Assembly (NCBI GenBank): GCA_033763455.1
Contig: JANRKO010000042.1
Span: 1-24,512 of the forward strand
DNA length: 24,512 bases
Direction of reading: 5' to 3'
Source: Polyangiaceae bacterium
GTDB taxonomy: Bacteria > Myxococcota_A > Polyangia > Polyangiales > Polyangiaceae
Shown here: positions 2,548-24,413 of the stretch, piece by piece
How positions within the stretch are numbered: position 1 is the first letter of the stretch
Layout of the letters: the number at the start of each line of letters is the position of its first letter
Notes under the pieces: model-generated
What the model was told of the DNA's origin: nothing
Seen by the model: the letters and a program-made list of their open reading frames with translations, nothing else
Databases searched by the model: none
Translations under genes and position numbers: made by a program

Positions 2548-3678
2548 TCAGAGCGAGGCGTTCCTGCGGAACTTCATCGGTGTAAGACCAGTTGCTTTGC
2601 GGATAGCAGCGGCCACTTGGCGGCCATCCCCGAGGCCTGTGTGGCTAGCAATGGCTTCTACCGTGAGATCCGTATCGGCGAGAAGCCGCTGGGCTTCCTC
2701 GACACGAAAACGCGCCCAGGTTTGAGCGGGTGTCATGCCGATGCAGGCATGAAAGCGGCGTTCTAGGCTGCGACGCGAGCATTTAAGCTTGGAGCAAACA
2801 TCCTCGATGCTCAAGCCTTTCCCTAGGTTGTCACGCATTAACGTCATAGCAAACCCCACCAAACGATCGGAAGCTGCCACGGCGTCCGTTGAGCGGCGAT
2901 TCACGATGCGCACGGGTGGAACCATCAATATTTGGCGCCCAAGCTTAGGGGATGCGAGCACTCGCTCAAGGAGCGCCGCGGCTTCGTAGCCGATACGTTC
3001 CGCCGCAGTTTGAATACTGCTGAGTGGGGGATTGCAAAGCAGGCATTGTGCTAACTGGTTGTCTACACCTAGCACCGCAACATCCGCAGGAACCTTGATG
3101 CCTGCACGAAGGCACTCTTCGGCCACAACCCACGCTTGGTAGTCGAACATGCAAAATACAGCGACAGGCTTTGCCAAAGCTTTGAGCCACTCTGCGAGTG
3201 AGTCGTCGTCTTCCACTAGAGAAACAGCTGGATTGCTGCCACGCGTGCCGGCATAGACGCTGCACTCAGCGCCTACTGTTCCGAGGTGTGCGCTGAACGC
3301 ATCTAACCGAGCATCCGGGTGCGTGCCTGTGCGTGCTACATACGCAAACCGCTTGTAGCCGCGTGTGATGAAGTGTTTTGCTGCGAGCACGCCTATCAGC
3401 TGTTCGTCATTGCCAACTTGGTGCACTTGGCGCGGGCTGGGTGCCCCCGTGTTGACGGCGGGGATCCCTGAGCGCTCAACGCGTGCTAGCACTTCGTCGT
3501 CGGAGGTTCCTAGCAGAAGGCCGTCTGGCTTCAGAGCGATAAGCTGCTCTATGCCTTCGAGCGTTGGCGCCAAAAGATCGAAAGTCCACGGACGATTAGG
3601 TCGCGCAAAACTCGCAATGCCCTTTAAATTGGCTTCGGACCAGCCTGCGTGGTTAAAGAATCCCAATCCGACGCGCAT
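2548..3678 (-). CDS. XylR-like transcriptional regulator (LacI-type sensor plus C-terminal AraC HTH)
   Basis: KPVAVFC..D..A, VP.DVAVLGVDN, PPLSSI, IGYEAA.LL, RRSTD, then AraC HTH SRRSLERRF...G.TP and LL..TDLTVEAIA..TG. Confidence 0.9.
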   Translation of the reverse strand: MRVGLGFFNHAGWSEANLKGIASFARPNRPWTFDLLAPTLEGIEQLIALKPDGLLLGTSDDEVLARVERSGIPAVNTGAPSPRQVHQVGNDEQLIGVLAAKHFITRGYKRFAYVARTGTHPDARLDAFSAHLGTVGAECSVYAGTRGSNPAVSLVEDDDSLAEWLKALAKPVAVFCMFDYQAWVVAEECLRAGIKVPADVAVLGVDNQLAQCLLCNPPLSSIQTAAERIGYEAAALLERVLASPKLGRQILMVPPVRIVNRRSTDAVAASDRLVGFAMTLMRDNLGKGLSIEDVCSKLKCSRRSLERRFHACIGMTPAQTWARFRVEEAQRLLADTDLTVEAIASHTGLGDGRQVAAAIRKATGLTPMKFRRNASL

Positions 3679-16245: not shown

Positions 16246-16590
16246 ATGACTGATCTCACCGCTCGCCGCTGCGTTCCTTGTGAGGGTGGAGTGCCCGCGC
16301 TATCTCCCGAGAAAGCACAAGAATTTTTGGCCCGCATACCCGGCTGGGAGCTCTCAGCGGACGGACACTGGATCTCCCGCCGCTTCGAATTCAACAACTA
16401 CTACGAAACGATGGCATTCGTGAACGCGATCGCGTGGGTAGCCCATCGAGAAGATCACCACCCCGATCTAGAGGTGGGGTTCAGCGCCTGCACTGTGCGC
16501 TACACCACGCACGCGGCCCGTGGCCTCACGGAGAATGATTTCATCTGCGCGGCCAAGGTCAATCAGCTATTGATTTACGGTCTGCGCTGA
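16246..16590 (+). CDS. phhB: Pterin-4-alpha-carbinolamine dehydratase
   Basis: CVPCEGG, F.F.NY....AFVN.IA..A..EDHHPDL, TH...GLTENDFICAAK. Confidence 0.93.
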   Translation: MTDLTARRCVPCEGGVPALSPEKAQEFLARIPGWELSADGHWISRRFEFNNYYETMAFVNAIAWVAHREDHHPDLEVGFSACTVRYTTHAARGLTENDFICAAKVNQLLIYGLR

Positions 16591-16630: not shown

Positions 16631-17303
16631 TTATTCGCCAAGCCAGCGGGCGGATGCCGCGGTTAGCCAGCGCCCAGGCAAGCATCCCCCTGCACAGACC
16701 CACTCGGATGAGAGGGTGCCAACGCTCGCATCAAAAGCCCGGCGGCAAGCGAAGACCCAGTGTGACGATGTCGGGTGAACGGTAGCCAGGGGGTCGGCCT
16801 TAACTTCACCGCGGATGCGGATGAAGGTTGGGGTCTTCGGATCGATTCCCTTCAGGTAATCGCGCAGGTTGGGCGGCTGGAACGGCCGTACTCCAGTGGG
16901 GCGTGGGAAAGAACTCGTCCATCTGGAACGCGCCGCCCCAGAGATGAGCTCTAACATGGAGAGCCTTACGTGGCAAAGCCAGCAGGCTCTCCATCTGCGC
17001 ATCGGCCAATGTTTGACCCGCTAGCAAATTAGCCAATTTGCTAGCCGTCCTCTGAGCGCCCCTAACATCTGAGATCGCCAACTCATACTGAAGACGCTGA
17101 ATGGCCCAAGCTGGTATTGTTGCGCACTTCTCGGGCTGCCCTGAGTAAATCTGAAACAGCGAAGCAATGTCGCCGGTGGACTCGAGCCGACCGACTATTT
17201 CGCGAGGAACGGCGCATTGGTCCAATTGCTGCGCCTTCAACAAAGGAGCGAGTAACAAGAGAAGCCCAAGCAAGGCGCTAAGGCAGAACGCGGCGCGGCA
17301 CAT
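16631..17303 (-). pseudogene. Probable frameshifted gene for a secreted hypothetical protein
   Basis: ORF 16806..17321 has a signal peptide (from MCRAAF at 17303). After the G4 run at 16898-16901, GC-rich third codon positions move to the frame of ORF 16631..17002 (TGVRPFQPPNLRDYLKGIDPK). Confidence 0.45.
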
Positions 17304-17318
17304 GGCGGAAGGATACAA

Positions 17319-17411
17319 CATCCGACTGTGTCAGCAGTGAACTACGATGTGCTGCTGGCAGGAACGGTAGCGCCGCAAGCTCAAACTTACTCCTCGAACT
17401 CTCCGGCCCTG
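17319..17411 (+). pseudogene. 93-bp remnant of the S8 protease gene (prodomain/mature junction)
   Basis: Translates HPTVSAVNYDVLLAGTVAPQAQTYSSNSPAL, versus HPAVSAVSYDMLLAETVAPPARTYPSNSPGL at 19125-19217. Confidence 0.85.
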
Positions 17412-17568
17412 CGCACCTACCTCACCGCGCACATTGGTACCGAGGGTCTGGGGAAAACCGGGAAAACCCTCGGGTTCGAAAGGCACGCTAAGGACGGGCG
17501 TGAAACGTTCGAGCGAAGTTGCGAAATGCGCGTTGCGCGAGGGCAAACAGTGATGCTAGGAAACGAGC
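17412..17568 (+). repeat. Conserved upstream segment of the lipoprotein cassette (also at 19470-19626 and, diverged, ~20862-20973)
   Basis: 17412-17528 is nearly identical to 19470-19587. GGGGAAAACC, GTTGCGAAATGC and GATGYTAGGAA (RBS) precede a GTG in all three copies. Confidence 0.9.
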
Positions 17569-18510
17569 GTGGTGGGATACAGGAAAGCTAGCGGGGTGAT
17601 GGCGAGCCGTATCGCAGTTCGGGCACGAACCTTCATTTGCAGCTCGCAAGTTTCGTTGATCTCACTTTTATCTTGCTCAACTCCTGTGAACTCCGGAAGC
17701 GCGGGAGCAGTTGTGCCGCAGGTACCCGCTCAGCCAATGCCCAAGCAAGCGCCCCCTGCACAGACTCGCTCGGACGAGAAGGTGCCGACCCCTGCATCAA
17801 AGGCCGCGGACGAATGTGTTGGTTTTGACCTTGGTATTTGCGCTGATGGGTCGTGCGTTGATGGGATTCGCTACCGGCGGCAGGTGACGGTGCGTTTCCC
17901 CCCGCAGATTGAAGCCTCAGTTGCGCTAGTGCCTGGTTGCGTGATCGCATTGGCCTGGTTCAAGGACCCAGAACTGTGGGCAAGCTGCAAATATGTGACA
18001 GAGCCAAAGGACCGAGCCCTGCGGCTGACCCAGTGTGGGGGCGACATGCGGTTGGGCGAGGAAAACACGGTAACGTCAAGTACCTTCGGGATTGGCACAG
18101 ACAACTGTCCCGTGGACCTTGCGATTAAGGTGCCCCTGGTAGACGTCAACTGTGGCGGTAAGGCGCCGCCGAAAATGCACCATTTTAGGGAGTTCAAGAG
18201 GGCCCATACCTACGGGCTTTCTCCAAAGAGTCCTGGCGCTAATGGGCAACCGTTCTTGGTCCGCGCTCAGGTTCGGTTCTGGGAGGGGACGACTGAGGAT
18301 GAGTACGCAGAAGTGCTGCGCATGGCTGCGCGGGCGGGCGGAAGGCCATTCGAGGGCGCCAACTTAGGCGTGGGAGGGAATGACGTCCATTTCGAGTTTC
18401 CTCCCACAATCACAGACGAGGGCTACGATAGAATCTACAGAGCCTTGTGGGCGCACCCCGCCGTCAGCGGCGTTCTTGGGGATGTGAAATTCACGAGGTT
18501 GGGTTGGTAA
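17569..18510 (+). CDS. Cassette lipoprotein copy A: 8-Cys central domain plus C-terminal subtilase-prodomain-like domain; putative protease inhibitor
   Basis: LLSC lipobox; clear paralog of 19627..20555 and 20974..21903; GTG start and TAGGAA are conserved in all three. The function is inferred. Confidence 0.8.
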   Translation: MVGYRKASGVMASRIAVRARTFICSSQVSLISLLSCSTPVNSGSAGAVVPQVPAQPMPKQAPPAQTRSDEKVPTPASKAADECVGFDLGICADGSCVDGIRYRRQVTVRFPPQIEASVALVPGCVIALAWFKDPELWASCKYVTEPKDRALRLTQCGGDMRLGEENTVTSSTFGIGTDNCPVDLAIKVPLVDVNCGGKAPPKMHHFREFKRAHTYGLSPKSPGANGQPFLVRAQVRFWEGTTEDEYAEVLRMAARAGGRPFEGANLGVGGNDVHFEFPPTITDEGYDRIYRALWAHPAVSGVLGDVKFTRLGW

Positions 18511-18588
18511 TCAAGGAATTCGCCTTCTGCCGCGTTGGCGCGTTTGATCGACTAGTTGAGAAATGAGAACGCTATGAGAAACCCACAG

Positions 18589-19457
18589 ACTGGATAACCT
18601 TGAGCTGGAAGAACCCCGCAGGAAGTGGAGCGCAGTGCCGATACAAGGGAGGGAGTAGCCAGGCGCATCCGGTCGGCGCGACGCAAACAGCGCTTGCAAA
18701 GAAGTATGTGTTCGAGAGTTGCACCAATGGCGCGCATCCCGGAGCGGAAATCATTGCAGACTTCGTCAAGCTTCGTGTTGATAATGGCGATAGCTATCAG
18801 CCGCGCACGAGGGTGCGCGCAGTGCTCGGGGAGGTATCTCCCTGTGCTAACCGCGGCCCATCCAGACGCATCCCGGCCCTACCCTTTCCTCAGTATGCAG
18901 GCACCGACTTTGCTCCACATCCGACTCTGGGCTTGGAGATTGGCAAGCGGCATCTTCTGCTTTCGTTAAAGGAAGGCGCCAATGTCGACGACATTGGCGC
19001 TCTGGAAGCGCTATCAGGCGGGCACCTCGTCGGGGCGATTCCCGAAGTGGCGTTGGTGATTCTGGAGTTCCCTTGGAGCGAGGATTTCCCCGCGTTGGAA
19101 GCAGCTCACGCAGGATTGAGCTCACATCCGGCCGTGTCCGCAGTGAGCTACGATATGCTGCTCGCAGAAACGGTAGCTCCGCCTGCTCGAACTTACCCCT
19201 CGAACTCGCCTGGCCTGCCCTGGCGCTGGGGGCGAGCAGATCCGCCCGGAACTGTTGGCAACTGGGGCCTCCGCTACGTTCGTGCGCCCTTGGCATGGAA
19301 CGCTAACGCGGCGCTCAGGAAGCGGGGAGCTTCCGTTCCTGTGATAGTCGTCGATGCTGGCTTTCAACGCCATGAGGATCTCCAAGGCATTCTCACTCTG
19401 GCAAAGCAGGTTACCTTCGACTCTTCAGGGAATTTGGTCGAAAGCAACGGAGTGTAT
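18589..19457 (+). pseudogene. Internal fragment of the S8 protease gene (N-domain, prodomain, catalytic Asp only)
   Basis: Collinear with ~22240-23108. It has no signal peptide or ATG (in-frame TGA at 18564) and breaks after GVY, before the HGT motif. The frame continues to 19598 through the cassette upstream segment. Confidence 0.9.
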
Positions 19458-19626
19458 GGGCACTCGACACGCACTTACCTCACCGCGAACATTGGCACCG
19501 AGAGCCTGGGGAAAACCGGGAAAACCCTCGGGTTCGAAAGGCACGCTAGGGACGGGCGTGAAACGTTCGAGCGAAGTTGCGAAATGCCAGTTGTGTGAGG
19601 GCGAGTTTCGATGTTAGGAACCAGCC

Positions 19627-20555
19627 GTGGCGGGTAGTTGGACAGCGAGAGGGACGCGAGCAGGCCGTTTGGCTTTTCTGGCGCGAATCTGCATTTGCGG
19701 CATACCGGTTTCGTTGGCCTCACTTTCGTCTTGCTCCACGCCGTCGAGCTCTGGGAATGGAGGCCCGGTGGTGCCACAGGCAGCGGTGCGGCCAGCGCCC
19801 AAGAAATGGCCCGCTCGGCAGACGTACTCGAACGAGAAGGTCCCGACGCCGGCTTCAAAGAGCGCGGACGAATGTGTTGGTTTTACCTAGGTACTTGCGC
19901 GGACAAGTCGTGCAGCGATCTGCTCCAATACCGACGCGAGGTGACGGTGCGCTTCCCCAACGAGATCGAAGCCTCGGTTGCACCAACGCCAGGCTGCGTG
20001 CTCACATTACCCTGGTTCAAGGACCCAGGACTGCGGGCACACTGTAAGTATGTTGCGGACCCGAGGGATCGGGCCCTGCGGCTGGCTGAGTGTGAGGGCG
20101 ACATGCAGCTGGGTGAGGGAAACACGGTAACGTCGAGTGCCTTTGGGATTAGCCGGAACGGGTGCCCAGAGGACTTCGAACCTCAGATCCGCCTCGTGGA
20201 CGTTAACTGTGGCGCCAACGAGCCGCCACGGATGCACCATTTTACGGAGTTCAGAAGAGAGCCTAGCTACGGGTTTTCACCGCGCAATCCAGGGGCGTAT
20301 GGGGAACCCTTTCTGGTGCGCGCTGACATTTGGTTTTGGGAGGGAACAACGGAGAATGAGTACGCGGAAGTGCTGGCGATTGCTGCGCGCGCCGGGGGGA
20401 AACCCTTGAGCGGCGGACGGGACAATGTCGTCGGGTTCGAATTTCCCCCAACGACAACTAACGATAGCTATGAAGAAGTTTGCCGGGCTCTCCGGGCCCA
20501 TCCGGCGGTGATCGGGGGTGGTGGTGACGTGCCTCTGCAGAGGGACGGTTGGTGA
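19627..20555 (+). pseudogene. Cassette lipoprotein copy B, 1-nt frameshift at ~19884
   Basis: ORF 19627..19890 matches the N-terminus of copy C and ORF 19638..20555 matches the rest. GGTTTTACCTAG here versus GGTTTTGACCTTG in copy A. Confidence 0.88.
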
Positions 20556-20613
20556 TGGCAAAGGGGCACATGGGTACACGCCTGGACCGCAGTTTTGGAA
20601 AGAATGGAAAGTC

Positions 20614-20854
20614 ATGGAAAATCAAGATTCAATGAAACAACGGGCTCTCACGCTTGCTATGGTGCTTGCGATGGGGTGCGGCTTCGGCTGCTCTCAGGCG
20701 CCTGAAGAGATGCTCGCGAAGCAATCAGCCTCGCTTCAAACAGCGGCTCCCTTGTGCGCCCCCGTTGAGCTCGTTGCCGAGAAGAGTTATTCACCCAGCT
20801 CCTGGGCGGACGCAACCGCGTGGCTCGACACTCAGCGGGCGTTCTTGCTGCCAG
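20614..20854 (+). pseudogene. 5' fragment (80 codons) of the S8 protease gene
   Basis: Near-identical to 21963-22203 (MENQ.SMKQ...WLDTQRAFLLP), then joined to the cassette upstream segment; the frame stays open to TAG 20964. Confidence 0.9.
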
Positions 20855-20973
20855 GTTGCAACTGGGGAAAACCCTTGGTGGCCAAAGGCGCAGGCGCGAC
20901 AGGCTTGAGACGTTCGGACGACGTTGCGAAATGCCAGTTGTGTGAGGGCGAGTTTCGATGTTAGGAACCAGGC

Positions 20974-21903
20974 GTGGCGGGAAGTTGGACCGAGAGAGGG
21001 ACGCAAGTGGGCCGTTTGGCTTTTCTGGCGCGAATCTGCATTTGCGGCTTACCGGTTTCGTTGGTCTCACTTTCGTCGTGCTCCACGCCCTCGAGCTCCG
21101 GGAATGGGGGCCCGGTGGTGCCACAGGCGGCGGTGCGGCCAGCGCCCAAGAAATGGCCGGATCGTCAGAAGTACTCGAACGAAAAGGTGCCAACGCCTGC
21201 ATCAAAGGCCGCGGACGAATGTGTTGGGTTTGACCTTGGTATTTGCGCTGATAAGTCGTGTCTTGATGGGATCAGATACCGGCGCGATGTGACGGTGCGT
21301 TTTCCGAAGGAGATTGAAGCCTCAGTTGCGCTAGTGCCAGGTTGCGTGATCACATTGGCCTGGTTCAAGGACCCAGAACTGTGGGCAAGCTGCAAGTATC
21401 TGGGAGAGCCAAGGGGCCGGGCTCTGCGGCTCACGCAGTGTGAGGGAGACATGCAGCTGGGTGAGGGAAACACTGTCACGTCGAGTGCCTTTGGGATTGG
21501 CGCGGACAACTGCCCCGTGCACCTTGAGACCAAGGTGCCCGTCAAGGACGTTAACTGTGGCGCCAAGGAGCCGCCACGGATGCATTATTTTACGGAGTTC
21601 AAAAGAGAGCATAGCTACGGGTTGTCGCCAAGAAGTCCTGGGGCCCACGGCAGGCCATTTCTGGCGACCACATACGTGTGGTTCTGGGACGGGACAACAG
21701 AGGACGAGTATGCAGAGGTGATGGGTATTGCGTTTCGGGCAGGGGGACGACCCCTGCAGGGGTGGGGAGGCAATGCCGTGACCTTTGAACTTCCGCCAAA
21801 CATAACGGATGAAGGCTACGAAAGCGTCAACCGGGAGCTGGAGACCCATCCGGCGGTAAAGACTGCTGCTGGTGACTTGCCCCTCCAGCGGGACGGTTGG
21901 TGA
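20974..21903 (+). CDS. Cassette lipoprotein copy C (intact), directly upstream of the catalytically complete protease; putative cognate inhibitor
   Basis: LSSC lipobox, 8 conserved Cys, C-terminal V.FW.GTTE.EY...AGGRP...FELP...HPAV...D.PLQRDGW. Confidence 0.82.
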   Translation: MAGSWTERGTQVGRLAFLARICICGLPVSLVSLSSCSTPSSSGNGGPVVPQAAVRPAPKKWPDRQKYSNEKVPTPASKAADECVGFDLGICADKSCLDGIRYRRDVTVRFPKEIEASVALVPGCVITLAWFKDPELWASCKYLGEPRGRALRLTQCEGDMQLGEGNTVTSSAFGIGADNCPVHLETKVPVKDVNCGAKEPPRMHYFTEFKREHSYGLSPRSPGAHGRPFLATTYVWFWDGTTEDEYAEVMGIAFRAGGRPLQGWGGNAVTFELPPNITDEGYESVNRELETHPAVKTAAGDLPLQRDGW

Positions 21904-21962
21904 TGACAAAGACGTCGATGGGTACGAGCCCTGTAGCGCAGCTTTGAAAAAAGGGGAAAGTC

Positions 21963-24413
21963 ATGGAAAATCAAAATTCAATGAAACAACTGGCTCTCGC
22001 GATTGCTGTGGTGCTTGCGATGGGGTGCGGCTTCGGCTGCTCTCAGGCGCCTGAAGAGATGCTCGGGAAGCAATCAGCCTCGCTTCAAACAGCGGCTCCC
22101 TTATGCGCCCCCGTTGAGCTCGTTGCCGAGAAGAGTTATTCGCCGAGCTCCTGGGCGGATGCAACCGAGTGGCTCGACACTCAGCGGGCGTTCTTGCTGC
22201 CAGCGAGTGTTGATGTGATTGAGGGCTTATCTGGCAATCACTGGGTAACCTTTACCTGGAAGAATCCCGCAGGCAGCGGGGGGCAGTGCCGGTACAAGGG
22301 GGCGAGCAGTCAAGCCCATCCAGTCGGCCCTACGCAGACAGCGCTTGCGCAGAAGTATGTTTTCGATAGCTGCACCAGTGGGGCACGTCCAGGCACGGAG
22401 ATCGTTGCGGATTTTGTTAAGCTGCATGTCGACAACGGAGATAGCTATCAGCCGCGTACGGAAGTTCGAGCCCAGCTCGAGGAGGTGTCCCCGTGCGTTA
22501 GCCGAGGTGTATCTAGGCGTATCCCGGCGTTGCCCTTTCCGTCGTATGGAGCATCGGAATTCGCTCCGCATCCGACTTTCGGGTTGGAAATCGGCAAACG
22601 GCATCTGCTGCTTTCGTTGAAAGATGACGCCAACATGGATGACATTAGGGCCATTGAGGGGCTGTCGGGGGGGCGGATAGTAGGTGCGATCTCCGAGGTA
22701 GCGCTGGTGGTTCTGGAGTTCCCTTGGGAGGAAGATTTCGCTGCGTTAGCAGAGGCTCAGGCTGCGATCGGTTCGCATCCAGCAGTTTCGGCGGTCAGCT
22801 ACGATATGCTTCTTCAAGAATCTGCAGTTCCGCGCCCCCGAACGTATCCCGCGCCCTCACCGGGCCTACCCTGGACGTGGGGCGGAGCGGACCGGCCTGG
22901 AACCACAGGCAATTGGGGCCTTCGCTATATTCGCGCGCCCTTGGCGTGGAACGCGAACGCTGCACTCAGGAAGCGGGCAGCATCCGTTCCAGTAATCGTG
23001 GTGGATTCCGGCTTTCAGCGCCACGAGGATCTCCAAGGAATTCTCACCCTCGCAAAACAAGTGACGTTCGATCAAGGCGGTAACTTGGTGGTAAGTCCCG
23101 GAGTGTACCAGGATAATGATCCTGTCGTTGCCGAGACCAGCCACGGGACGGCGACCGCCGGGATCATTGGGGCCAGATGGGGGAACGGGCGCTACATCGA
23201 TGGCGTGACGCCGTTCGCTACGATCACGGGGGCGGGCGTGATTTCTCAGCTGAAGCCGGTGCAACTCGCAGGAATGGTGGACACGATGGTTCGCGCCGCG
23301 CTGGACCCGCAATCGTCGAGTCGCGTGGTGAACATATCGCTCAGCCTCAATCTTGGTAAGCAATGCTTTGACTCCACGGGGGCGTTGACACGACCAGGCA
23401 ACATAGCAGGACAGTATCGCTGCGATCCGGGCTTGATCACCGAAACCGACGGCCCGCATCCGAGCAGCACCTGCGACGCGGCGGCTTTGCGTGCCAGCAT
23501 TGAAAAGGCTGGCAAAGCTTTTGCCGACGCGGTTGCCGCCCTTCAAACCTTCAACAAGAAACCTCGCCCGGTCCTCTTCGTCGTCGGCGCCGGCAACGAT
23601 TCCGGACCCGAAGAGCTTCAAGGCTGCATCGCCGGAACCCCCCGAGGAGGCTTGGGTGATTTCCCCGCACATTGGTCAAGTCCAATGGCCTACGCAGCGA
23701 TAAAGATACCTGCAGTGGCGCCTCACATGATCGTGGCCGAGTCCATTGGCCCCAAGAATGAACCCGGTATCAGCGTGCCCGTGCTCCGGCGTTCCAGCTT
23801 CAGCAATTTGGTCACTGTGCCTGGTCGCGGCCTGTTCGCTCCCGGAGAGAAGATCCAATCTTTGGCAGGGGGTGGCTCGCTTTCCACCGTGCAGGACGAA
23901 TCCGGTACCTCCTTTTCCGCACCAATGGTTGTCGGCGCGGCAGCCTTCATCGCTGCTGCTAAGCCCGAATTGACGAATCAGCAGGTTCGAAAAATCCTGG
24001 TCGACGAAGGCGCACCGTTTCCGAAACTTGTGGTGTCTTCGCAGACGGATCGAGCTCTCGATCTAGCGCGTTCACTGCGCGCAGTGGACAAGGTTGCTGG
24101 GGGAAACACGATTGGCCGCATGCTCGCGGACATGAACGATGCTACGCGAGATGGCTTTACGCGCGTTGCCTACGGCCCCGCTTTTTCCCACGTCACCGCT
24201 ACTGGCACCAAAGCAGATGTGGCGTCGTTCACCGAGGAATCAGATGGCATCGTCGATATGCGGGATTTTCGGCGTCTTCGCGATCTCTTGCTCGCGTCGA
24301 ATGGACGAACCATCATTCAGGACGTTACCAACCCTTCGACCAATCCGGCACTCGACCTCAATGGCGATGGTCTAATTAGTTCTCATCCAGAAACGGCAAG
24401 AGCTCGAAAATAA
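21963..24413 (+). CDS. S8 (subtilase) serine protease, predicted lipoprotein; possibly 3'-truncated
   Basis: GFGC lipobox; triad D348 (VIVVDSG), H394 (SHGTATAG), S650 (SGTSFSAP); oxyanion N545 (GAGND); VVNISL; prodomain at ~22602-22820; DGIVDMRD and DLNGDG Ca-binding-like motifs near the end. Confidence 0.93.
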   Translation: MENQNSMKQLALAIAVVLAMGCGFGCSQAPEEMLGKQSASLQTAAPLCAPVELVAEKSYSPSSWADATEWLDTQRAFLLPASVDVIEGLSGNHWVTFTWKNPAGSGGQCRYKGASSQAHPVGPTQTALAQKYVFDSCTSGARPGTEIVADFVKLHVDNGDSYQPRTEVRAQLEEVSPCVSRGVSRRIPALPFPSYGASEFAPHPTFGLEIGKRHLLLSLKDDANMDDIRAIEGLSGGRIVGAISEVALVVLEFPWEEDFAALAEAQAAIGSHPAVSAVSYDMLLQESAVPRPRTYPAPSPGLPWTWGGADRPGTTGNWGLRYIRAPLAWNANAALRKRAASVPVIVVDSGFQRHEDLQGILTLAKQVTFDQGGNLVVSPGVYQDNDPVVAETSHGTATAGIIGARWGNGRYIDGVTPFATITGAGVISQLKPVQLAGMVDTMVRAALDPQSSSRVVNISLSLNLGKQCFDSTGALTRPGNIAGQYRCDPGLITETDGPHPSSTCDAAALRASIEKAGKAFADAVAALQTFNKKPRPVLFVVGAGNDSGPEELQGCIAGTPRGGLGDFPAHWSSPMAYAAIKIPAVAPHMIVAESIGPKNEPGISVPVLRRSSFSNLVTVPGRGLFAPGEKIQSLAGGGSLSTVQDESGTSFSAPMVVGAAAFIAAAKPELTNQQVRKILVDEGAPFPKLVVSSQTDRALDLARSLRAVDKVAGGNTIGRMLADMNDATRDGFTRVAYGPAFSHVTATGTKADVASFTEESDGIVDMRDFRRLRDLLLASNGRTIIQDVTNPSTNPALDLNGDGLISSHPETARARK

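Follow-up and report, generated by a model that had tools for sequence, protein, structure and literature searches.

What would a bacterium gain from a series of lipoprotein genes, each set directly in front of an intact or broken copy of one protease gene? The question is raised by contig JANRKO010000042.1 of a Polyangiaceae bacterium, which was analysed over its whole length of 24,512 nucleotides (nt), here called the window, and which is one entire contig (C42) from a genome bin of 92 contigs and 6.56 Mb. Between positions 16641 and 24413, on the plus strand, the window holds four copies, decaying or intact, of a unit composed of a leader segment, a lipoprotein gene and a gene for a subtilase of family S8, with 75-82% DNA identity among the copies in a blastn self-comparison. 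In every unit the lipoprotein gene lies directly 5' of the S8 copy on the same strand, and the two have been duplicated together. Our comparisons revealed that the C-terminal domain of the lipoproteins resembles the prodomain of the adjacent protease, and this resemblance provides a framework for a reading that we hold to be about evenly balanced between right and wrong, namely that the lipoproteins are membrane-anchored, stand-alone prodomain mimics that would bind and restrain a lipoprotein subtilase.

Profile comparison shows that the last ~60 residues of the lipoproteins share homology with the prodomain that the neighbouring S8 gene encodes. When the C-domains of the four lipoproteins were aligned by hhalign with four prodomains of S8 proteins, the probability was 92% and the expect value (E) 6.3e-7 over 55 columns, the alignment being in register up to a common HPAV...D-x-x-L motif. 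The score of 40.4 was reached by none of 200 column shuffles (mean 10.6, standard deviation 2.0, maximum 18.4), and the reversed alignment scored 10.4. When the whole lipoprotein was compared with the N-terminal 300 residues of S8, hhalign returned the C-domain/prodomain stretch alone (E 1.8e-4, probability 48%), with no similarity between the two N-domains. BLASTP alone was not significant (E 1.3), yet it aligned exactly the C-domain with the S8 prodomain. Within a small set of open reading frames (ORFs), a hidden Markov model (HMM) of the prodomain run in HMMER ranked lipoproteins B, C and A (E 0.0026, 0.0053 and 0.031) after the S8 prodomains themselves, with noise beginning at 0.65, and an HMM of the lipoproteins ranked the S8 prodomains next after the lipoproteins (E 0.12, 0.13 and 0.29). 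At an independent locus (L050) the best match of the lipoprotein HMM was the prodomain of an S8 relative, P0006 (E 7.7e-4, with the next match at 0.38). An invariant Asp of the lipoproteins pairs in the alignment with one that is likewise invariant in the S8 prodomains, hydrophobic residues stand at +1 and +3 in both groups, and all four lipoproteins terminate exactly 8 residues past this Asp. The chain would therefore stop roughly where a cleaved prodomain would end.

The predicted fold of this region is consistent with a propeptide-like domain. An AlphaFold2 (AF2) model of 240 residues, built on a four-sequence alignment, has a mean predicted local distance difference test score (pLDDT) of 42.5 and is confident only at residues 161-232 (pLDDT 63-80). 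Residues 163-231 of the model follow the order strand, helix, strand, strand, helix, strand, the same topology that PMC6993865 assigns to the propeptides of subtilisins and to mimics of them. The first-ranked Foldseek match was unprocessed pro-subtilisin E (3whi_B; E 0.018, 69 columns, 20% identity), and the inhibitor POIA1 was recovered at Z 6.5, rank 29 (VIA-align). A language-model search returned one fervidolysin-prodomain cluster and one cluster of I9-bearing lipoproteins at 0.84-0.85, which we treat as a lead only. PMC6993865 describes how, in subtilisin BPN', two enzyme helices are capped by last-strand residues of the propeptide, a Glu and an Asp, and how the tail enters the active-site groove.

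The full lipoprotein layout comprises a lipobox signal, a Pro/Ala-rich linker of ~45 residues, an N-domain with eight cysteines and the prodomain-like C-domain, the mature protein being ~270 residues long. In lipoprotein C the eight-Cys N-domain covers residues ~80-215 and the C-domain residues ~230-309, and the eight Cys are conserved in every copy that covers that region. The lipobox reads LLSC in lipoprotein A and LSSC in lipoprotein C; in A, B and C the LLSC/LSSC motif is preceded by a positively charged N-terminus and a hydrophobic stretch, and as a motif reading it is also kept in P0002, a relative outside the window. The signal region is open and gap-free in frame across all copies, and P0002 was called from the corresponding Met. 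Lipoproteins A and C share 69% protein identity, with a ratio of nonsynonymous to synonymous substitution rates (dN/dS) of 0.27 overall and of 0.16-0.35 by domain, parts of B included, and these ratios mark A and C as real genes under constraint. Selection on the C-domain is purifying as well (dN/dS 0.16-0.24, with dS saturated). Lipoprotein B carries a sole lesion, one base missing after 19884 relative to A and C, which creates an in-frame TAG at 19888-19890; past the lesion the +1 frame is open for 222 codons, through 20555. This lesion, at a site outside the ~3x coverage by public contigs, is possibly a recent inactivation or an assembly slip.

Only one genome bin and one short contig have so far yielded members of the lipoprotein family. 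Its sole relative outside the window, P0002, is full length (304 aa), is 78% identical to lipoprotein A and forms a cluster with a single member, on one contig of 1585 nt. A word search of 5.8 billion proteins gave four lipoprotein matches, three of which are the window's own, and phmmer against 1.84 billion representatives gave no lipoprotein match beyond the window's own cluster. Homologues were found in 0 of 60 related genomes, two metagenome scans for relatives returned 0 matches, and Pfam, NCBIfam and PADLOC yielded no family match. With one outside relative, the family is too rare for its gene neighbourhoods to be tabulated.

The protease that closes the array is a complete S8 enzyme by its sequence features. 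Its product matches the Pfam family PF00082 (Peptidase_S8) over residues 344-681 with 80.1 bits (cut-off 21.8; E 2.4e-22). The motifs around Asp348 and His394 align to mirolase, which is also its best sequence match among solved structures (E 3.8e-7), those around the His and Ser650 align to subtilisins, and all three residues are invariant in the relatives P0006 and P0009. The layout comprises a signal with lipobox AMGC, an N-domain (~90-190), a prodomain (~200-290), the catalytic domain and a weakly dockerin-like C-terminus (Dockerin_1, E 0.006, under the cut-off). With a lipobox on both the protease and the lipoproteins, the two would be expected in the same compartment. The architecture is common to P0006 (39% pairwise identity) and P0009 (a 2331-aa ORF in a genome of the same order), and four more genomes of the class have S8 ORFs with the prodomain segment. 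Residues 195-816 have matches at E 1e-20 or better in 3 of 61 related genomes, the protein's own included; a scan of genome contigs with the single S8 protein gave no match, and PADLOC gave a generic subtilase match only.

Relatives of the S8 N-domain and of the whole protease occur in other settings. A profile of the N-domain and prodomain matches 16 of 301 genomes, and the N-domain is also found in large ORFs elsewhere in the class. In the window's own genome the N-domain (~48-172) recurs at L054:1825-5586 (minus strand) and L055:4237-7887 (plus strand), on contigs C92 and C50. The two proteins there (1253 and 1216 aa, 49% identical) have a lipobox and an HExxH-type motif (HEYGH), have no Pfam match and may be metalloproteases; one N-terminal module would thus be carried by two protease classes. 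Upstream of P0006, on the same strand, L050:1647-2471 (plus strand) encodes P0010, a Cys-rich putative lipoprotein whose stop codon overlaps the S8 start codon. Pfam gave no match for P0010, and at an hhalign E of 0.14 it was rejected as a homologue of the window lipoproteins; at that locus the upstream position may be taken by another kind of small exported partner.

The array keeps the gene order described in an earlier note on this DNA: ORF, repeat and protein searches again gave an S8 remnant, lipoprotein A, an S8 fragment, lipoprotein B, a second S8 fragment, lipoprotein C and the complete S8 protease, all on the plus strand (Table 1). Lipoprotein C is separated from the intact S8 gene by 59 nt and lipoprotein B from S8 fragment 2 by 58 nt. 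Other claims of that note needed qualification. Repeated duplication of the unit is borne out by repeats whose matches in self-comparison far exceed chance, but the copies are mosaics: identity is 91-98% between A and B in the 5' leader, 88-95% between B and C in the 3' leader, signal and linker, and 82-97% between A and C in the N-domain, and is lowest in all three pairs in the C-terminal domain (47-80%). This patchwork of pairwise similarity points to recombination or gene conversion among the copies and away from simple serial duplication. The lipoproteins, said to have kept their full length, are intact as A and C, while B has its one-base deletion and a fourth copy has decayed. Three of the four protease copies are indeed truncated, though fragment 1, contrary to the heavy deletion ascribed to all three, is not visibly decayed.

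Each S8 remnant lacks the His/Ser half of the catalytic domain, the retained parts being residues ~261-302, ~92-384 and 1-81. Fragment 1 is also without a signal peptide and keeps the N-domain, the prodomain and the region of the catalytic Asp, within an open frame (18600-19598) that extends into leader B. Against the intact gene it has a dN/dS of 0.093 (dS 1.46, dN 0.136) over 288 homologous codons, all open, and under neutral drift by substitutions alone over the whole branch the frame stayed open in 48 of 2000 simulations. The simplest reading is that a full-length paralogue was truncated recently, and the fragment itself would be either recently lost or still used. Fragment 2, which holds the signal peptide, the lipobox and the start of the mature protein, has a dS of 0.075 and is a very recent duplicate of the 81 opening codons. 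A comparable truncation is seen in a genome of the same genus, G003, where L018:8430-9311 (plus strand) is a 293-aa ORF with 33% identity to S8 (E 9e-38). Besides the prodomain, this ORF covers part of the N-domain and both the Asp motif and the His motif, ends shortly past the His and has no signal peptide, so that it is cut much as fragment 1 is; G003 has no lipoprotein gene.

Table 1. Array features, repeat pairs and upstream genes in the window.
Feature	Coordinates	Strand	Basis or details
Lipoprotein, decayed fourth copy (remnant)	16641-16835	+	residues ~42-108 with in-frame stops; profile E 0.005 with 1 TGA; tblastn E 2e-6 with stop
S8 remnant 0, prodomain end (S8 residues ~261-302)	17277-17411	+	tblastn E 6e-7; prodomain HMM E 4e-8
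Leader A, conserved non-coding	17412-17568	+	89% to 19470-19620; 72% to 20865-20967
Lipoprotein A, intact, 313 aa from GTG	17569-18510	+	probable start ATG 17599
S8 fragment 1 (S8 residues ~92-384)	18585-19456	+	BLASTP 72% identity to intact S8, E 1e-163
Leader B	19470-19626	+	three-unit DNA alignment
Lipoprotein B, frameshifted	19627-20555	+	three-unit DNA alignment; two separate matches, one with TAG
S8 fragment 2, first 81 codons	20614-20856	+	90% aa identity to S8 residues 1-81
Leader C, only the 3' two thirds of leaders A/B	20865-20973	+	three-unit DNA alignment
Lipoprotein C, intact, 309 aa	20974-21903	+	ORF
S8 subtilase, intact, 816 aa	21963-24413	+	Pfam Peptidase_S8
Repeat pair	19518-20854 vs 20865-22203		82%; 1340 nt
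Repeat pair	17412-18343 vs 19470-20401		75%; 935 nt
Repeat pair	17460-18342 vs 20865-21747		76%; 883 nt
Repeat pair	18589-19456 vs 22240-23107		75%; 873 nt
Repeat pair	17318-17412 vs 19124-19218		84%; 95 nt
Repeat pair	16665-16739 vs 17732-17805		81%; 75 nt
Glycoside hydrolase, AraC-type regulators, SelO, ammonium transporter, pterin-4a-carbinolamine dehydratase	upstream of 16590	both

The leaders upstream of A and B (17412-17535 and 19470-19593) are 89% identical overall, which exceeds the identity of the coding sequence that follows (~75%). This conservation possibly reflects recent gene conversion or a regulatory element. A genome search found no leader copies elsewhere in the genome, Rfam gave 0 matches up to E 1, and a consensus fold of the leader had compensatory change in 0 of 38 pairs. 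Promoter-like sites numbered 2 against 2.0 expected, with no promoter consensus, terminator-like sites 11 against 8.4 expected, and Tandem Repeats Finder reported no repeats. The possibility that the leader arose from S8 sequence lying downstream was considered and set aside, as the alignment was unconvincing.

The array occupies a variable region of the genome. Synteny with two genomes of the same genus (L052, L053) breaks at 16590/16591, just past the gene for pterin-4a-carbinolamine dehydratase, and downstream of the break the two relatives differ from each other too. From 16591 to the contig end all features of interest are on the plus strand, and G+C is flat along the window (0.56-0.62). 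Beside the array, at 16789-17043, two short segments match G003 at 94-100% and 84%, with counterparts at L018:7569-7663 and L018:8351-8464; housekeeping genes of the window genome and G003 are merely 73-79% identical, below these segments. In G003 the two segments flank an insert of ~690 nt directly before the truncated S8 ORF, and in the window they overlap a minus-strand ORF (16806-17321, 171 aa) with a signal-like start and no family match.

Taken together with the homology of the C-domain, this anatomy suggests a mechanism in which a two-gene cassette, presumably co-transcribed, encodes a lipid-anchored exported protein 59 bases upstream of a lipid-anchored S8 protease. The tail of the lipoprotein, set behind a long, flexible linker and a disulfide-rich N-domain, would be descended from, or share ancestry with, the protease's own prodomain, and a free-standing copy of this kind could dock on the mature protease as a cleaved prodomain does, with its sheet packed on surface helices of the enzyme and its C-terminal tail in the substrate cleft. 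The linker would tether the C-domain to the membrane, and docking would hold the protease, itself bound to the membrane, inactive or under guard in the producer's envelope; in a variant of this mechanism the docked domain would give folding help in trans. The history that would have led to the present locus is an amplification of the cassette in tandem, at least four times, followed by recombination among the copies, after which three protease copies would have been cut down recently, A and C kept by purifying selection and B left with one lesion. The outcome would be one protease alongside two or three diverged inhibitor-like paralogues.

Several observations weigh against the lipoproteins being prodomain mimics. 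The hhalign inputs were shallow (four sequences each, with an effective sequence number, Neff, of ~1.6) and the compared regions were picked by hand. None of the four C-domains matched Inhibitor_I9 or the prodomain families of Pfam up to E 10, and neither PF05922 (Inhibitor_I9) nor PF22148 (Fervidolysin_NPro-like) had a match at E 0.01 or better genome-wide. PF22148 is likewise absent at E 1e-5 or better across 61 related genomes, and Fervidolysin_NPro-like matched one of four S8 prodomain sequences weakly (E 0.045), so that S8 residues 200-290 are identified as a prodomain by position and conservation. The lipoproteins, by these comparisons, lie outside the I9 and fervidolysin-prodomain profiles. 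PDB profile searches with A5 (the lipoprotein C-domain) and A6 stayed at chance level (E 0.24 or worse), and the fold match is non-specific, with ACT, NikR and ribosomal S6 domains matching equally well or better (Z 7-8.9; Foldseek E 0.02-0.06). The linker and N-domain, two thirds of the lipoprotein, are unexplained and are modelled with pLDDT <50, and a feature search with the N-domain (residues 78-218) returned nothing usable. The lipoprotein signal is a motif reading backed by conservation, and the gene-caller models for A and C begin past the lipobox. Finally, S8 has a prodomain of its own that is conserved across relatives, which makes a second one not obviously needed, and 0 of 6 loci of S8 relatives have a prodomain-like neighbour.

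Stand-alone inhibitors that resemble subtilisin propeptides are known, and PMC6993865 describes Pleurotus POIA1, the yeast proteinase B inhibitor and Arabidopsis SPI-1 of MEROPS family I9, together with Toxoplasma MIC5 and Plasmodium SUB1-ProM. The gene for SUB1-ProM adjoins subtilase genes (PMC6993865), and the window lipoproteins share with this group a chain that ends soon after the last strand, such that a free tail could enter the cleft; what they resemble is the neighbouring protease's own prodomain. The examples named in PMC6993865 are, however, all eukaryotic, small and single-domain, whereas the window proteins are bacterial and lipid-anchored, have a long linker, an extra eight-Cys domain and several paralogues, and have no Pfam I9 match. 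For the gene arrangement the nearest bacterial precedent is, by analogy, the potempin/KLIKK system of Tannerella forsythia, although the fold differs. Potempin genes encode lipobox inhibitors, each specific for the peptidase linked to it, immediately upstream of, and co-transcribed with, secreted peptidases, and the PotC/mirolase pair involves an S8 enzyme (PMC9890683). The window lipoproteins likewise have a lipobox motif and are encoded immediately upstream of a peptidase on the same strand. Compared by description, potempins have 98-132 residues, PotA and PotC are beta-barrels and PotC is a standard-mechanism inhibitor (PMC9890683), whereas the mature window protein of ~270 residues has a prodomain-like alpha/beta end. 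The two systems also belong to different phyla, the window protease is itself a lipoprotein, and truncated proteases in a tandem array do not figure in the account of potempins taken from PMC9890683. In Myxococcus xanthus, PopC is a subtilisin-like protease restrained by a dedicated complex-forming partner, PopD (PMC6434023), and here too the comparison is one of descriptions; the window partners differ in that both have lipoprotein export signals, and any complex between them would therefore form outside the cytoplasm. What would be new in the window is a prodomain mimic that stands alone and is, at the same time, a lipoprotein inhibitor linked to its protease, each idea being known separately.

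If the lipoproteins do restrain the protease, the pruned proteases and retained, diverged inhibitors could form a small bank of specificity variants that shields the envelope from the organism's own, and perhaps its neighbours', membrane-bound subtilases. We put this extension forward tentatively, as doubtful; were it true, the inhibitors would be, as far as the searches made here can show, the first in bacteria to mimic a prodomain, and the locus would be a protease-based counterpart of toxin/immunity cassettes. The earlier note proposed a membrane-anchored protease effector with a set of diversified inhibitor/immunity lipoproteins, against the background of polymorphic toxin loci and the orphan immunity genes that they accumulate. 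The inhibitor half of that proposal is favoured by the homology of the C-domain to the S8 prodomain and by the lipobox signals on both partners, and the toxin/immunity framing is unproven. In such a system the S8 effector would be passed between cells, for example with outer-membrane material, and the lipoproteins would confer immunity, A and B being orphans against the proteases of relatives. We consider this unlikely. It shares its binding mechanism with restraint by a prodomain mimic, so that the homology evidence applies to it as well, and the inhibitor-like genes do outnumber the proteases (A and C intact and B nearly so, against one intact S8). The C-domain, its dS saturated, is the most diverged part in every pair, the other parts having been homogenised; the S8 N-domain that is also found on the two lipobox HExxH proteins would fit a common N-terminal module with differing catalytic ends; and the locus begins at the synteny break. 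Counted from the lipid-bearing Cys, position +2 is not Lys and position +7 is not Ala in S8 or in the lipoproteins, which by the rule given for M. xanthus in PMC5562445 would send them to the outer membrane, and outer-membrane lipoproteins are exchanged between cells (PMC5562445). The closest model is SitA/SitI, in which lipobox proteins of a myxobacterial-type genome have a cognate protective gene in the operon, with several paralogous cassettes per genome and protective genes outnumbering effectors (PMC5562445). SitA, however, combines a conserved N-terminus with a variable C-terminal toxin (nuclease or tRNase), and sitI lies downstream (PMC5562445); the effector candidate of the window is a protease, its candidate protectors lie upstream, and the broken copies keep N-terminal protease pieces and not C-terminal toxin tips. 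Selection on the C-domain is purifying and not diversifying, no delivery system or toxin-family domain turned up, with no search aimed at TraAB or secretion-system genes, and the family has a single relative in all databases searched. An extracytoplasmic protease is, moreover, no obvious kin-discriminating toxin. It is on gene order, remnant type, selection and delivery that the orphan-immunity framing fails to find support.

The lipoprotein could instead be an accessory subunit that folds, anchors, sorts or activates S8 at the membrane, the extra copies being leftovers of former cassettes. The S8 complex of Treponema, dentilisin, reportedly has lipoprotein partners and provides a model for such an arrangement. 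Adjacency, co-duplication and a common lipobox fit a subunit equally well, and the large N-domain and long linker exceed the needs of a minimal inhibitor. Besides inhibiting, prodomains of subtilases also serve as chaperones in folding (PMC6993865, PMC10580911), and a chaperone role would fit this arrangement. We nevertheless regard a subunit role as improbable: S8 retains its own conserved prodomain, which makes folding help in trans seem redundant, its relatives are without such a partner at all six loci, and lipoprotein A is under purifying selection despite the truncated protease that follows it.

The array might also be largely wreckage, with lipoprotein C and the intact S8 gene the only parts that matter, and with A, B and the S8 pieces the functionless remains of recent duplication. 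The frameshift in lipoprotein B, the truncation of three S8 copies and the decay of a fourth lipoprotein copy are what such a history would leave, and in G003, of the same genus, the lipoprotein is absent and S8 persists only as a truncated ORF. Fragment 1 of S8, with its low dN/dS, further indicates that intact-looking sequence can mean mere recent loss. Lipoprotein A argues in the other direction, being intact with a dN/dS of 0.19-0.27 against C and a dS saturated in the C-domain, and the only outside relative, P0002, is full length and nearest to A. On this balance we give the wreckage account a low probability.

Lastly, a tandem chimera stitched by the metagenome assembler from strain variants is very improbable, even with an array in a contig of 24.5 kb that ends 99 nt 3' of the S8 gene and with public contigs that reach ~3x depth and nowhere span a whole unit, because the copies are 18-25% apart, too divergent for a collapsed repeat, are truncated at different points with unique junctions, and have nested deletions in register with a common leader that strain variants would not yield. 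Public short contigs, 100% identical, also bridge four junctions (16990-17474, 18509-18704, 19481-19631 and 20508-20658); they possibly come from the window's own source sample and are thus not independent support.

At the other end of the window lies a perfect direct repeat of 36 nt (2436-2471 and 2506-2541, starts 70 nt apart), which spans the end of a gene for a MopE-motif protein (811-2460) and the intergenic space before a minus-strand gene (2548-3678).

In summary, this locus offers a candidate case of a bacterial lipoprotein that reuses the prodomain of its neighbour. If true, it would join the eukaryotic prodomain-like inhibitors and the bacterial lipoprotein inhibitors represented by potempins, and it would reveal a simple evolutionary route to a specific inhibitor, recorded in the array as intact, nearly intact and decayed stages. 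If binding holds, the lipoproteins would provide a handle on an otherwise uncharacterised clade of myxobacterial-type subtilases, and the array would become a test case for what surplus inhibitor paralogues are for, whether self-protection or protection against the proteases of relatives.

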